Of a DNA stretch of 14,674 bases, positions 568-7,346 are shown one piece after another; the stretch's first letter is position 1; every line of letters starts with the position of its first letter. Origin of the DNA: Thermoproteota archaeon (GTDB lineage: Archaea > Thermoproteota > EX4484-205 > JAAOZP01); assembly GCA_049700215.1 (NCBI GenBank), contig JBNAVT010000036.1, positions 1-14,674 on the forward strand. Reading direction: 5' to 3'. The notes below the pieces were generated by a model. That model saw only the letters and a program-made list of their open reading frames with translations. It was not told where the DNA came from and ran no database searches. Both the position numbers and the translations under genes were made by a program.

Positions 568-584
568 CGAAACCCTTTTCTATA
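568..584 (+). promoter_or_regulatory. BRE + TATA-like promoter for the ncRNA candidate
   Basis: CGAAA-CCC-TTTTCTATA, about 22 nt before the 5' end of the closing helix at 605-607. Confidence 0.55.
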
Positions 585-604
585 TTCCACCAGCATACTT
601 CTAC

Positions 605-775
605 AAGCCCGGCGTGGGGAGTAGGCTTGGGCGGGAAGTGGCTGCAAGCCAATCCCGGAAGCAGCCTCCCACCGGTTGCTGGGAGACAACATCAAACAGC
701 AGCTTGGCGGAAGGCAGCGGCTGGGAAAGGCAAACAGCTACAGCTCGTTCAGGCTTAGACCCACCAACCGGGCTT
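605..775 (+). ncRNA. Unassigned structured ncRNA candidate (~170 nt)
   Basis: Ends pair: 605-612/768-775 (8 bp), 614-618/760-764 (5 bp), 622-635/744-757 (14 bp including 5 G-U pairs, which only work on the + strand). Possible internal hairpins at 639-651, 666-685 and 719-739. Promoter upstream, U-tract downstream, no credible ORF. Confidence 0.6.
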
Positions 776-784
776 TCTTTTTTT
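774..784 (+). terminator. Oligo-T archaeal terminator
   Basis: TTTCTTTTTTT directly after the closing stem of the ncRNA candidate. Confidence 0.6.
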
Positions 785-3854: not shown

Positions 3855-6800
3855 CTAGTCCTCCAGCATCGCTGAAACCTGGGGGGCGAGCTGCTCCAGA
3901 CCCCAGTTGCCGAGAGTAATCGCTTCCTGGGGGCATGTTGCCAAGCATGCTCCACACCCGTTGCAAACACTCTCTAGAACCCTAACCTTGTCCCCCTCCC
4001 TGACTATGGCGCCGTATTCGCATGAAGACAAGCATCTCCCGCAGCCGGTACACTTCTCCGCAGAGACCTCAGCGGCCTCCGGAAGCCTAAGGCTACTCCT
4101 CCTGAATAGGCTTGTAACCAGCGCGGCTGCGCCACTCCCCTCGACAGCGCTCTCAACAATATCCCTTGGGCCGTGGCATGTGCCGGCGACGAATACTCCC
4201 CTAACCCTTGTTTCAAGCGGCTTCATCTTGGCGTGAGCCTCCTGGATAAACCCGTGCTTATCAACAGTGACGCCGAGCCTCCTGGCGAGCTCAACCATCC
4301 TCCCGGAGGGCTTGAAGCCCAGTGCTAGAACAACCATATCCACCTCCAGCTCGCCCCTCCTGCCTGTTAAAGTATCCTCGTAGACTATCTGAAGATTCCC
4401 GTTTCCAGCCCTCCTTATCTCGGACGGCCTCGACCTTATGAAGACCACACCCTCCTCCAGACACCTCCTGTAGAGAAGATCCTCCCAGCCTTTCCCGAAG
4501 GCCCTCAGCTCGTTGTAGAATATGAAGACCCTGGCCTCCCTGTCGTGCTCAAGGATCAGCCTAGCCTCCTTCATGCTTGCGGCGCAGCAGTAGTATGAGC
4601 ACTCCTCTATGCCTGGTCCAGACTCCCTTGACCCGACGCACTGTATGAAAGCCACCCTCTTAGCAGGCTTCCCATCCCTCCTGAGGAGTACTCCCCCGGT
4701 TGGGCCTGAGGCGCATATTATTCTCTCGAACTCCATGTTTGTTATAACGTTCTCATACTCCCCGTAGTGGTACTCTGGTTTAAGCCTGGGGTTGAAAAGG
4801 TCTGAGCCGACTGCGACAACTATGGCTCCAACGTTCAGCTCAACATTCTTAGGCTCGTCCCCAAGGTTTATCGCTGCCCTGGTGCAAGCCTTCATGCAGA
4901 GCCCGCATTCAACACAGTAATCCATGTTTATCACGTATTTCAATGGTACGGCTTGCGCGAAGGGGCAGTATATTGCTTTAACAGGCTTAAGGTCAGCATC
5001 ATACTTGTTAGGCTGGTAGACGGGGCAGACGTTAACACACTCCCCGCAGCCGTTACACTTGTCAGGATCCACATAAGTAGGGTTAACCCTGACCCTGACC
5101 TTGAAGTCGCCAACCCTACCTTTTACTTCAACAACCTCAGCGTTGGGAATAATAGTAATATTCTTATTCCTGCCTGCTTCAGAGAGGAGTGGACCCTCGA
5201 TACAGTTACTGACCACGAATGCTCCCTTTGGAATAAAACAATGCGTAGGATCCACCGTTATGTCATAGACATAGTCGTCTGTTGAGGGCACTATTCGCAG
5301 TTCCTCAACCCTATCTAAGAAGAATTCTGTTTTGAGAATTCCTTGAAGCTTTATAAAATCAGGGTCATTTCTGACAACGATTCTTTTAACGGCTTTGAGC
5401 ACACGATTCAGGTTTTTAGACGTGATCCTACATTTTTGACGCATAACTCTAATCATGTTTGAGTGAGCAAGTGGAAAAACTCTTAGAGGAATGCGATATC
5501 TTCGTTTAAGATTTGATATCAACCTTCCACATTCCAGAGGCATTTCGTCGAACAATCCGCCGCTTGACTTTCGAAATCTAAGACGTGTGGCGATCCTTCT
5601 TAACCTTAGCGATTTTTCAGGATGGCTGGAACCTACCTTCTTAACAAACCGCAGTACATCCTCGCTGCCCGAAATATCGACTATAACCCTACCTTTGTAT
5701 TCATACACTTTACTTAAAATCCCAAGCCTTTTAAGAAGCAAGTATAACCCGTACCCGTATTCATATTCATCACCGAGTGGGAAACCGATTTTCGCAGCCA
5801 CCCAATTAGGCTTCTCGATTAACACTGCATAACCGTCTCCATCAAAGAAGCCCTTTAAGAATGCTGCAACCAGCTTCTCGTGAAGCCGAAAAACAGGCCT
5901 CAGATCCTCCTTCACCCTCAACTTTTTAGCAAGCTCTGTGAGGATCCTGTTTTTCACCTGAACAACGGTTCTTTTCTTCTGATTTGGACTTTCAGGCTTT
6001 AAGTAGGTAAGGCAGGCAGCTCTGGTTGGAAATATTTCTTTATAGTTCTTCAGAAACAGTTTTATGAGTTGCCTGTTAGTATTATAAAATCTAATTCTTT
6101 CTGCTTCTACACACCCATCGGATGCAACCAACCCAAGAAGATACATTAATTTTTCATTGAGAAACCGGGGCTTAAGACGAATCTTCCCACCAGCTCCTTG
6201 ATACGTAAGTGCACCAACCTTTCTTTTAACTCTATTCCAATCAAAACCCACTGCTTCACAAGCCTTTTTCAGTTCACCTACTGAGAGAAAGTACTCAGTC
6301 CTTTGTAAAACATCATATGGAATGTTCAAGAGTGAGGAAGCGTTCCGCAATGTAGTAAATTTCTCCCTTAACTTATTACGGACTATTCTATTAAGATCGA
6401 TATCAGCAACTTTAAAAGAATCCTCAGGAAGCAGATCAATAATCCATTCTCTTGAGGCTTTAACTTTAAGTTTTCTTGGCGAGTATAGTCTGTCACCTGC
6501 TTTAAGCCGTTCACATTCAATCCAAATAGGACCCCCCGGAGAATCTACTAATATTTTATGATCCCGTGTGAAGCGTAATTTTGCTCCAGTACTGGTTTTA
6601 ACCTCAACCAGCGTTTTTGGAGAAGCTAGTTTTTGAGCGGAGATTATTTTACACTGCTTTAGAGAATGAGAGTTGAAGGAGTATGTTAAAAGCGCATCCC
6701 TATGCGAAGTCCTATTTACATCGGAGAGCTTGCCGACCAGCTCCCTTAAGGTAATGATCGTCCCGTCGTGGAGAATAATCTCAGAGTCACCAGGCATGCA

Positions 6801-7346
6801 TATGGAGCAGTCTAAAGTCGGAAACGTTTTGTCGAGCTGAGCCATCACACCACCTATGCTCGGCTCCTTTTCAACGATGTAGACACGGTAGCCGGCGTCA
6901 GCAATGTCTAGAGCACACCTGACGCCCGCTATGCCTCCCCCTATGACGAGCGCCTCCCTCGTAATCTTCAAACCCTCCACGCCGGGGGGCTGAGACGCGC
7001 GCAGAGCCTTCTGGACACCTCCTTTCACGAGGCGGATTGCCTTTAAAGTCGCCTCCTCCCTGCTTTCGCAAGCCCAGGCGCACTGTTCCCTTATGTTGAC
7101 GAACTCCACTAGACTAGGCTTTCCGAAAACAGCTTCGAGAAGCCTGCTTGAACACGCTGCGACAACAATCCTACCATCATCCCTCAAGCCAAGGTTTTCG
7201 CAAGCGTTTTCCTCGCACAGGCTATCGGTGATTAAAACCCTCCTCACGAGAGGACTGCTGGAAAACACGCTTCTAAGCCTGTCGAAATCAATCTTCTCCA
7301 GCAGGGTTGAGCAGCAGGTGCAGAGCACGACTGTCACACGCCTCAA
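3855..7346 (-). CDS. hdrA: Heterodisulfide reductase subunit A, intein-containing precursor (1163 aa; about 631 aa after splicing)
   Basis: NIREQC, VIGGGIAG FAD motif, QLDKTFPTLDCSI|CI, an inserted ferredoxin domain, MEFER, QCVGSR, CSYYCC..SMK, GVFVAG...GPRDI and a C-terminal 2x[4Fe-4S] domain. Confidence 0.96.
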   Translation of the reverse strand: MRRVTVVLCTCCSTLLEKIDFDRLRSVFSSSPLVRRVLITDSLCEENACENLGLRDDGRIVVAACSSRLLEAVFGKPSLVEFVNIREQCAWACESREEATLKAIRLVKGGVQKALRASQPPGVEGLKITREALVIGGGIAGVRCALDIADAGYRVYIVEKEPSIGGVMAQLDKTFPTLDCSICMPGDSEIILHDGTIITLRELVGKLSDVNRTSHRDALLTYSFNSHSLKQCKIISAQKLASPKTLVEVKTSTGAKLRFTRDHKILVDSPGGPIWIECERLKAGDRLYSPRKLKVKASREWIIDLLPEDSFKVADIDLNRIVRNKLREKFTTLRNASSLLNIPYDVLQRTEYFLSVGELKKACEAVGFDWNRVKRKVGALTYQGAGGKIRLKPRFLNEKLMYLLGLVASDGCVEAERIRFYNTNRQLIKLFLKNYKEIFPTRAACLTYLKPESPNQKKRTVVQVKNRILTELAKKLRVKEDLRPVFRLHEKLVAAFLKGFFDGDGYAVLIEKPNWVAAKIGFPLGDEYEYGYGLYLLLKRLGILSKVYEYKGRVIVDISGSEDVLRFVKKVGSSHPEKSLRLRRIATRLRFRKSSGGLFDEMPLECGRLISNLKRRYRIPLRVFPLAHSNMIRVMRQKCRITSKNLNRVLKAVKRIVVRNDPDFIKLQGILKTEFFLDRVEELRIVPSTDDYVYDITVDPTHCFIPKGAFVVSNCIEGPLLSEAGRNKNITIIPNAEVVEVKGRVGDFKVRVRVNPTYVDPDKCNGCGECVNVCPVYQPNKYDADLKPVKAIYCPFAQAVPLKYVINMDYCVECGLCMKACTRAAINLGDEPKNVELNVGAIVVAVGSDLFNPRLKPEYHYGEYENVITNMEFERIICASGPTGGVLLRRDGKPAKRVAFIQCVGSRESGPGIEECSYYCCAASMKEARLILEHDREARVFIFYNELRAFGKGWEDLLYRRCLEEGVVFIRSRPSEIRRAGNGNLQIVYEDTLTGRRGELEVDMVVLALGFKPSGRMVELARRLGVTVDKHGFIQEAHAKMKPLETRVRGVFVAGTCHGPRDIVESAVEGSGAAALVTSLFRRSSLRLPEAAEVSAEKCTGCGRCLSSCEYGAIVREGDKVRVLESVCNGCGACLATCPQEAITLGNWGLEQLAPQVSAMLED
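5205..6800 (-). mobile_element. Intein (532 aa, residues 183-714) with LAGLIDADG homing endonuclease
   Basis: Block A CMPGDSEI, block B TRDH, LAGLIDADG motifs LLGLVASDG (~6113-6140) and FLKGFFDGDG (~5833-5862), block F YVYDITVDPTHCF, block G VVSN followed by Cys+1. Removing it restores FPTLDCSICIEGP. Markedly AT-richer than the flanks. Confidence 0.96.

Follow-up and report, generated by a model that had tools for sequence, protein, structure and literature searches.

We describe here a putative structured RNA gene and its protein-coding neighbour at one end of a 14,674-nucleotide (nt) stretch of archaeal DNA (hereafter, the window), corresponding to positions 1 to 14,674 of contig JBNAVT010000036.1 in the assembly GCA_049700215.1 of a Thermoproteota archaeon. 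The RNA is predicted at positions 605–775 (+) as one interrupted hairpin, or rod, of ~171 nt from the first to the last paired base, on the grounds of its fold, its score with the covariance model R1 and covariation. It lies in the region 481–792, which is flanked by two minus-strand genes (1–480 and 793–1674). The former, designated gene A and considered the partner gene, is divergent from the RNA and is present with its 5' part (1–480, −; 160 codons), the contig end cutting off the rest. We are highly confident that this is a real family of structured RNAs, and we find it probable that the RNA is functionally tied to gene A; the chances that the tie consists in direct binding appear evenly balanced. 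The statement as a whole, namely that a stand-alone RNA gene works with, and is most likely bound by, the gene A protein, may equally well hold or fail.

Bathyarchaeia are among the most abundant uncultured archaea of sediments, and their non-coding RNAs are almost unstudied. The analysis presented below yields a covarying RNA family with a searchable signature, a conserved unannotated protein family of more than 2000 members, and genomic evidence that ties the RNA to the gene A protein.

Fold, strand and class of the RNA

The segment 604–780 of the plus strand folded with a minimum free energy (MFE) of -102.3 kcal/mol, as against a mean of -66.1 (standard deviation 4.6) for its dinucleotide shuffles, which corresponds to a z-score of -7.81; none of 200 shuffles folded as low. 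This comparison had been proposed in a preliminary description of the locus made from the sequence alone, along with the claim that G-U pairs bias the structure towards the plus strand. The claim is in agreement with the reverse complement, which gave only -83.1 kcal/mol (z-score of -4.43), a weaker fold that is expected because of the many G-U pairs. The ends of the RNA had furthermore been described as zipping into an interrupted helix of ~27 base pairs (bp; 8+5+14), and the base of the MFE structure is identical. It consists of closing stem P1 of 8 bp (605–612/768–775, +), closing stem P2 of 5 bp (614–618/760–764, +), a GAG/GA internal loop (619–621/758–759, +), previously noted as being of GA/GA type, and a G-U-rich helix of 14 bp (622–635/744–757, +). 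The two junctions around P2 are 1x3 and 3x2 in this structure.

Not all details of the rod's interior withstood the analysis. Competing hairpins had been suggested there, whereas the MFE and the consensus structures are both a single continuous rod; the segment 698–722, previously described as a GGAA-capped stem, constitutes the 3' strand of the rod in both, and the GGAA cap is not conserved, being absent from 6 of the 13 sequences of the window's genus (five with GGAG). An A/C-rich stretch pointed out at 686–697 is located in the apical element (682–696, +), a conserved “type A” loop with the consensus GAGAUAACAUCAAA, invariant in the genus and common to 11 sequences of another family, f15. 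By eye, no complementarity was seen between this apical loop and the start of the gene A mRNA. K-turn and sarcin-ricin (bulged-G) readings of the conserved internal loop were tried against the consensuses of these motifs and rejected, the register they need clashing with the covarying closing stem.

A promoter-like block that resembles a B recognition element (BRE) followed by a TATA box is located upstream of the rod, at 568–586 (+). It is kept in 13 of 13 sequences of the genus with columns 568, 570–572 and 576–579 invariant, and in the window the TATA-like hexamer has its centre 22 nt before the first paired base. The likely transcription stop is a T-tract directly after the rod (774–784, +). 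Both the BRE/TATA and the terminal U-tract of the preliminary description were thereby recovered and, given the hexamer at -22 and the T-tract, the transcript is predicted to be little longer than the rod. The same signals were counted with a script given 47 loci, of which 39 members passed the stem threshold (L011, L012, L014, L015, L016, L078, L086 and L114 were left out). A TATA-like hexamer centred 20–35 nt upstream of the first paired base occurred in 33 of the 39 members versus 9 of 39 on the opposite strand, and a run of at least four T within 30 nt downstream in 31 versus 13 of 39. Covariance model R1 scored the window locus with 186 bits on the plus strand and 66 bits on the minus strand. 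Altogether, the G-U pairs, the strand scores of R1 and the strand-specific promoter and T-tract signals favour the plus strand as the transcribed one; the RNA is predicted to be transcribed and stable.

The RNA could not be placed in any known class. Searches with Rfam 15 (4227 models) returned no match at the gathering threshold across the entire window. At E-values up to 10, the region 480–860 gave four matches, all far under threshold; the best one, MIR6457 (25.2 bits versus a cut-off of 140), is a plant microRNA precursor and merely another long hairpin. Rfam searches of 14 related loci revealed nothing beyond one neighbouring tRNA, and ARAGORN found no genes for tRNA or transfer-messenger RNA in the window. 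The only locus of the genome that matches the archaeal RNA of the signal recognition particle (SRP; RF01857) lies on a different contig (C64:3139-3447, 136.5 bits), and RNase P RNA (RF00373) is likewise encoded elsewhere (C37:470-762, 187 bits). The model for type T RNase P RNA (RF02357) matched nothing in the genome, which is uninformative because it also matched none of the control genomes. C/D box small RNAs (sRNAs) carry a C box RUGAUGA and a D box CUGA near their ends; neither TGATGA nor CTGA is present in 604–781, and there is no Rfam match to a snoRNA or sRNA. In H/ACA sRNAs a hairpin with a pseudouridylation pocket is followed by a single-stranded ACA; here the 3' tail past the closing stem is a T-tract without ACA, and no Rfam match was obtained. 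The earlier statement that the RNA resembles neither tRNA, SRP RNA and RNase P RNA nor the C/D and H/ACA types therefore passed the Rfam, ARAGORN and motif checks.

Other candidate identities were rejected as well. BLAST against the organism's own 2.09-Mb assembly returned the locus itself and two other matches of 18–24 nt (E 0.18 and 0.63), and R1 found in this genome the window locus only. A miniature inverted-repeat transposable element (MITE), which would be multi-copy and bear terminal inverted repeats and target-site duplications, or another dispersed repeat was discarded on account of this single copy; in the scan of 401 genomes described below, 29 of the 30 genomes with true members are single-copy too. 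In the bulge-helix-bulge motif, a helix of 4 bp is bordered on either side by a 3-nt bulge, one in each strand, and no bases face the bulges; the RNA in question has instead the 1x3 and 3x2 junctions and a helix of 5 bp, and the outer junction is missing in most other families. Type III antitoxin RNAs consist of direct repeats in tandem that precede the toxin gene and have its orientation; no tandem repeat was found in 480–800, and the RNA is divergent from the protein gene. No match to the RNA was found in phage or plasmid collections, and full-text searches of the literature on Bathyarchaeota, Brockarchaeota and archaeal noncoding RNA yielded no description of such an RNA among the matches listed. 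In view of the failed membership tests and of this literature result, we rate the RNA as a new class, with predicted expression and function. The initial suggestion of a stable, possibly undescribed family of archaeal non-coding RNA is thus supported by the Rfam result and the single copy, and also by the conservation and covariation reported below.

Conservation, covariation and distribution

Within the window's genus, the element was identified in 12 of the 16 other species at 73–91% identity, and in all of them between the same two genes. In the alignment of the 13 sequences, promoter region, basal helix and apical loop all include invariant blocks, and one- and two-base insertions and deletions rule out a reading frame. 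RNAalifold assigned 54 consensus pairs to this set, only 4 with double changes, and one-sided changes from G-U to G-C or A-U were many. In genomes of the genus, R1 scored 151–201 bits on the plus strand and 35–68 bits on the minus strand; it found nothing in 9 genomes from other genera of the order, a weak negative since R1 misses distant members. Run unfiltered on 16 gene A loci of other families, it produced 9 matches with E < 1e-3, all directly upstream of gene A and on the opposite strand. Each of these nine cross-family members folds alone into a rod of 146–179 nt (MFE from -65 to -115 kcal/mol). Three more of the 16 loci, recognised by folding and by the core motif, carry a longer, two-armed version on the same base, which brings the total to 12 of 16.

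Covariation was strong in all three alignments analysed. With nine sequences from six families aligned to R1, 94.5% of the cells were paired, versus 26–46% with the partners slid; 41 of 54 pairs had changed on both sides, and none of 500 shuffles reached any of five measures. Eleven sequences of f15, which belongs to another class, were also aligned to R1 and gave 87.6% of paired cells versus 22–45% when slid, and 36 of 54 pairs. Of the interior helices, the four main ones covaried in 8/8, 6/6, 3/4 and 9/10 pairs. Because the two R1-fitted alignments lean towards the model, a model-free count was made with 19 sequences that represent 10 families; they were aligned with MAFFT, fitted to no model, and assessed with a hand-given basal structure of 21 pairs. 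It had 89.4% of cells paired versus 15–58% when slid, and 14 of 21 pairs; in the outer stem, whose 5' strands (P1 and P2) occupy 605–618 (+) in the window, 10 of 10 pairs had changed on both sides across families.

The family is defined by the closing stem, a purine-rich internal loop (5' RAG-YA-N, 3' U-UA-GA) and an invariant short helix GCU(U)/(R)GGC with a U-G wobble. In sets of 15 and 19 sequences (7 and 10 families, respectively) the invariant letters are A, G and GCU in the 5' half of the core (619–628, +; GAG-UA-G-GCUU in the window) and GGCUUAGA in the 3' half (751–759, +; AGGC-U-UA-GA in the window). The consensus from a motif table of 30 copies is 5' RAG-YA-N-GCUU and 3' RGGC-U-UA-GA. 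The corresponding regular expression matched 27 of the 30 copies; besides the 3 misses there were 2 matches with small deviations, and in one deviation the U-G wobble had turned into C-G. The G-C, C-G and U-G pairs of the core occur in 19 of 19 sequences each and the A-U pair in 18; the Y-A and N-U positions pair in only 9 and 12 of 19, respectively, and hence belong to the loop. In the window's genus the core helix reads AGGCUU on both strands and is two-fold pseudo-symmetric, and such an AGGCUU/AGGCUU helix could be a site of the kind read by a homodimer. The outer stem is continuous in most families, with the second junction absent.

The basal core is thus nearly invariant, and the distal rod is variable in sequence and in the number of arms (one or two). 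The interior of type A, with the apical loop GAGAUAACAUCAAA, occurs in the window's genus and family f15; type B combines a GAAACGGCUGAAG-like loop with a GAUAAAGAC-like bulge, on one or two arms. In a single case, locus L179 of genome G409, the type A loop is GAUCACCUCAAA instead of GAUAACAUCAAA and may resemble the 3' end of 16S rRNA. The two-armed RNAs measure ~210–240 nt (L083, 2460–2690; L089, 2380–2600; L091, ~2350–2590; L119, 1501–1700; L120, 1501–1710). The usual base bears two hairpins that resemble one another, both having a GAAACGGCUGAAG-like loop and a GAYAAAGAC-like bulge of their own, and the form looks like an internal duplication of the arm.

To map the distribution, 401 genomes of the phylum were scanned with a strict pattern of the two core halves at 80–230 nt from one another, written in the nucleotide code of the International Union of Pure and Applied Chemistry (IUPAC), and each match was subjected to a stem test of flanking complementarity and fold energy. 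Pattern scans with the stem test recover only those members that keep the core motif. Matches were obtained in 53 of the 401 genomes; the reversed pattern, used as control, gave 3 matches. The stem test left 30 genomes with true members, having flank stems of 7–15 bp (4–6 bp in the window's genus, owing to its bulge), and 23 genomes with chance matches only (at most 4 bp, weak folds); the latter include every pattern match from genomes where gene A was not found. Moreover, 41 genomes of f15, one per genus, were scanned with a slightly relaxed pattern. Ten clear members were revealed, each oriented divergently to gene A at a distance of ~300 nt, and all 16 other matches failed the stem test; an eleventh member, in genome G161, was matched by R1 with 33.5 bits and has gene A on another contig. 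Among the 41 genomes, 11 possess both the RNA and gene A, 2 possess gene A only, none has the RNA only and 28 have neither. Gene A is therefore present in 13 of 41 f15 genomes, and in the window's order in one genus plus one genome.

In total, 45 genomes were found to contain the RNA; 13 of them belong to a single Brockarchaeota-like genus and 32 to nine other families, the close protein relatives of which are labelled Bathyarchaeota. The preliminary description had asked whether the RNA would be conserved, and these homologues answer in the affirmative; it had noted neither the connection with the divergent gene A nor the occurrence of the family outside this lineage. Gene A is present in 45 of the 45 genomes. 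In 38 of them the RNA adjoins it in divergent orientation at a distance of ~90–300 nt, namely in 13 genomes of the window's genus, in 16 from six other families and in 9 more of f15. In the window's genus, 13 genomes have both the RNA and gene A and 3 have neither; gene A is at a contig end in 1. The gene on the far side of the RNA varies by family: it is an NAD/FAD oxidoreductase in the window and, elsewhere, a permease-like ORF (open reading frame), a peptidase S49, a radical SAM enzyme, Pyr_redox, a PCC-domain protein, Cdc48 or an ATP-dependent DNA ligase. Downstream of gene A, no gene is common across families. Joint presence, joint absence and one constant neighbour make up the pattern expected of a functional pair.

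Three peculiar arrangements should be added. In family f19 (L081, L083, L085, L086, L089 and L091), the ATP-dependent DNA ligase converges on the 3' end of the RNA, and the order gene A - RNA - ligase may be lineage synteny only. The complete, single-contig genome G167 has three dispersed copies of the RNA that are ~90% alike and none of which is near gene A; they were located by the pattern scan at ~729953–730068 (−; L113), 740165–740280 (+; L114) and 1993911–1994029 (+; L115). Their neighbours are unrelated (MarR-like, UbiA, DJ-1/PfpI, TrmB and AsnC-type), and two of the copies are inverted and 10 kb apart. At L144 (genome G379, contig 3, ~259187–259579), gene A beside an intact RNA has an in-frame TAA and matches in two pieces, possibly as a pseudogene or through a sequencing error.

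The gene A protein and its probable tie to the RNA

The ORF 1–480 (−) of the window, cut by the contig end, is without a Pfam match. Gene A is complete at locus L008 (L008:750-1415, −), where it encodes 221 amino acids. No sequence match was found in Pfam, NCBIfam or PDB, nor in Pfam for 29 aligned members. Proteins of this family have ~220 amino acids. Homologues number 2181 at E ≤ 1e-5, and the named ones are all “hypothetical protein” from metagenome-assembled genomes of Brockarchaeota, Bathyarchaeota or Thermoproteota. Identity across families amounts to 40–59%, pointing at slow evolution, and the tree keeps the sampled families together. The residues H49, E70, D80, E93, E95, R114, K118 and R121 are invariant in the 29 sequences; the conserved motifs are KINHS, VEIETGF.PPE and SKI.RYS. 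In the gene A tree, the Brockarchaeota-like genus groups with Bathyarchaeota-like sequences with support of 80/86 only and deep nodes open; we make no claim of horizontal transfer of the RNA-protein pair into this genus.

AlphaFold2 with the 29-sequence alignment produced a model of high quality (predicted local distance difference test, pLDDT, 91.3; predicted template modelling score, pTM, 0.87). The best Foldseek match was 3dnx (E 1.5e-3), followed by AF1548, Can2, SfsA, XisH, restriction enzymes, NucS and Hjc. VIA-align, which is independent of Foldseek, gave 3dnx with Z 11.0 (root-mean-square deviation 2.4 over 104 residues), 1y88 with Z 9.2, XisH (2okf) with Z 8.8 and NucS with Z 7.4. Most of the listed matches are nucleases of the PD-(D/E)xK type. 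According to these models, the gene A protein has a PD-(D/E)xK nuclease fold with a conserved D...ExE motif; the putative catalytic arrangement of D80 with E93-x-E95 is that of BamHI. The protein shares the core fold with SPO1766 (3dnx), AF1548 (1y88), XisH (2okf) and the C-domain of NucS (2vld), and its conserved acidic residues (D80, E93 and E95) would occupy the expected positions. It differs from them by an additional helical hairpin at the N-terminus, an extended C-terminus and the lack of family-level sequence membership. We know of no structural neighbour of gene A with an RNA partner. In the ESM Atlas, only unnamed clusters were retrieved, with a phage PDDEXK_14 (0.86) as the nearest named one, no more than a lead. 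A search for fused or longer versions of the gene A protein found none, which is weak evidence.

A homodimer is also predicted. The interface score ipSAE (interaction prediction score from aligned errors) was 0.66 in each of three runs, the best of three controls reaching 0.00; at least 85% of contacts were common to the runs, with a partner pLDDT of at least 88. The mark was reached by 20 of 30 proteins solved as pairs of one chain and by 1 of 23 solved as single chains, a rough calibration for which our own alignment was used, and the pass may partly be due to likeness to PD-(D/E)xK dimers, which are common in the PDB.

On this basis we propose the following mechanism. The RNA would extend from the base of its closing stem, past the BRE/TATA promoter, to the T-tract. 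The gene A protein, as a symmetric homodimer, would bind the conserved and nearly two-fold-symmetric basal core (loop plus helix), and the RNA would act as scaffold or regulator of the protein. The lineage-specific distal rod and loops may present something to the protein, or hold it inactive or targeted. In its most specific form, the proposal is a new ribonucleoprotein, in which the gene A protein is a homodimeric nuclease akin to restriction enzymes and recognises, at the base of the rod, a double-stranded RNA site that is pseudo-palindromic, and in which the RNA switches, aims or restrains this nuclease; we advance it tentatively and with somewhat less than even confidence.

Several observations weigh against a dedicated pair of RNA and protein. 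In seven genomes (G167, G317, G395, G273, G381, G291 and G161) the RNA is unlinked from gene A. Gene A is more widespread than the RNA: of 301 genomes sampled from the phylum, 126 have it, almost always as one copy. At 20 further gene A loci R1 found nothing better than E 0.17. Eighteen of these loci come from five other families and many are in small complete genomes, which we presume to be of ammonia oxidisers; the other two are from G022 and G093, and most of the 20 have an ORF starting ~100–150 nt upstream of gene A. The strict motif had no true match in the families of these RNA-less loci, so that the protein apparently can do without such an RNA, or else the partner has diverged past our searches. 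In the gene A-bearing genomes G022, G093 and G404 the RNA was not found among the 30 of 41 relaxed-pattern matches that were checked, and whole-genome runs of R1 on G022, G093, G167, G179 and G275 gave nothing. As R1 was silent in G167, where the pattern found three copies, it misses distant members, and its negatives outside the genus are weak. The co-occurrence counts derive from related genomes, which are not independent events. Furthermore, in two of the three tests of covariation the sequences were aligned to R1's own structure, and the structure used in the MAFFT test was read from one of the aligned sequences and is somewhat favourable. The homodimer and the RNA binding site are model-based.

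These points bear first on the alternative that the RNA is genuine and has other partners, for instance as scaffold of a general RNA-binding protein or as a regulator acting in trans, its adjacency to gene A being an inherited, co-regulated divergent promoter region. The seven unlinked genomes (of 45), in which each copy retains a promoter-like element of its own, speak for it, as do the many genomes with gene A and no detectable RNA. It is at variance with an adjacency that persists across seven families with the other flank changing each time, with the lack of the RNA from all 28 gene A-negative f15 genomes, and with the failure in the stem test of the 23 chance-only genomes, including all gene A-less ones with matches; overall, we consider this alternative unlikely.

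The nuclease fold opens the way for another explanation, quite improbable in our view, by which the RNA is the substrate of gene A and is cut on both strands at the conserved loop, so that the distal rod is released and perhaps circularised, as in bulge-helix-bulge processing. A conserved loop at the base of the rod with a helix on either side, a partner with conserved acidic residues, and the pseudo-symmetric core helix together with the predicted symmetric dimer are what this explanation calls for. However, the loop is no bulge-helix-bulge, having bases on both sides of each junction and a 5-bp helix, and most families lack the second junction, their outer stem running on without interruption.

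There is also a slim prospect that the two genes form an accessory toxin-antitoxin or defence module with the structured RNA restraining a nuclease. The patchy occurrence (13 of 41 f15 genera, and one genus plus one genome of the window's order) and the limitation to two genes would fit such a module. Conversely, the protein evolves slowly, is essentially single-copy and has a tree that keeps families together. PADLOC gave no match better than E 0.01 for three members of the gene A family, the protein had no relative and the RNA no match in phage or plasmid collections, and type III antitoxin-like tandem repeats and co-directional genes are lacking. Finally, the readings as a cis element (bidirectional terminator), as a MITE or as a short ORF are extremely unlikely and effectively excluded: the RNA is separated by 17 nt from the stop of gene 793–1674, which converges on it, overlaps an ORF of 60 codons (614–796, +) and occurs in three copies in one genome, but its structure is kept beside eight different far-side genes and with compensatory substitutions in the stems, it has one- and two-base indels within the genus and strand-specific promoter and T-tract signals, and it is single-copy in its own genome.

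For the RNA gene working with the gene A protein, the closest analogue in logic is, we suggest, the bacterial pair of Y RNA and Ro60. Bacterial Y RNAs are 100–200 nt long and their gene adjoins that of Ro60/Rsr; a conserved loop or bulge in the terminal stem binds the protein, and the distal part is variable. The likeness lies in the RNA gene adjoining a protein gene, in the conserved loop of the closing stem and in the variable distal part. The differences are a partner with the PD-(D/E)xK fold and not the Ro60 ring, the lack of a tRNA-like domain and of an Rfam match to Y RNA, and the fact that binding to the partner is here a prediction. With 6S and SRP (7S) RNAs the family shares one long interrupted helix, purine-rich internal loops, an own promoter and the single copy. 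It matches neither of them in Rfam, the SRP RNA of the genome being on another contig; the large central bubble, a feature of 6S RNA, is absent, and conservation is found in the base of the rod, not in its middle or tip. ToxIN and the TnpB/IscB-omega RNA systems similarly combine a structured RNA gene with a nuclease gene, the two being inherited together. They differ in their tandem repeats (ToxIN), absent here, where transcription is divergent, and in the single-stranded variable guide (TnpB/IscB), the variable part here being double-stranded and without transposon ends or multi-copy spread; the nuclease fold of gene A is not theirs either.

If the complex is true, the gene A protein would be, to our knowledge, the first protein of the PD-(D/E)xK fold to which a structured RNA is dedicated as partner, and a function would be provided for a protein widespread in Bathyarchaeia and presumed ammonia-oxidising archaea. 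Should the ribonucleoprotein proposal be correct, Bathyarchaeia and their relatives would possess an RNA-dependent nuclease system of a new kind. Even with a purely regulatory link, the RNA deserves an Rfam entry and explains a recurrent “empty” intergenic region in these genomes.

Neighbouring genes in the window

The gene converging on the RNA (793–1674, −) encodes NAD-binding, FAD-binding and DHODB Fe-S domains and is the last in its operon-like run, which includes 4Fe-4S proteins, MvhD/FlpD, HdrA-like, CCG-domain and ferredoxin-like proteins. Because of this domain content, the label “hdr-flx operon” used in the preliminary description is fair, and the domain annotation bears out its statement that the RNA converges on the 3' end of that operon. 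A short inverted repeat (789–802; arms of ~6 bp, loop of 2 nt) lies between the T-tract of the RNA and the stop region of 793–1674 and may be the terminator of this converging gene itself. Further along the window, an HdrA-like ORF of 1163 amino acids (3855–7346, −), with FAD/pyridine-nucleotide oxidoreductase and several 4Fe-4S domains, contains an intein, with Intein_splicing at residues 190–710 and a LAGLIDADG_3 homing-endonuclease domain at residues 493–572.

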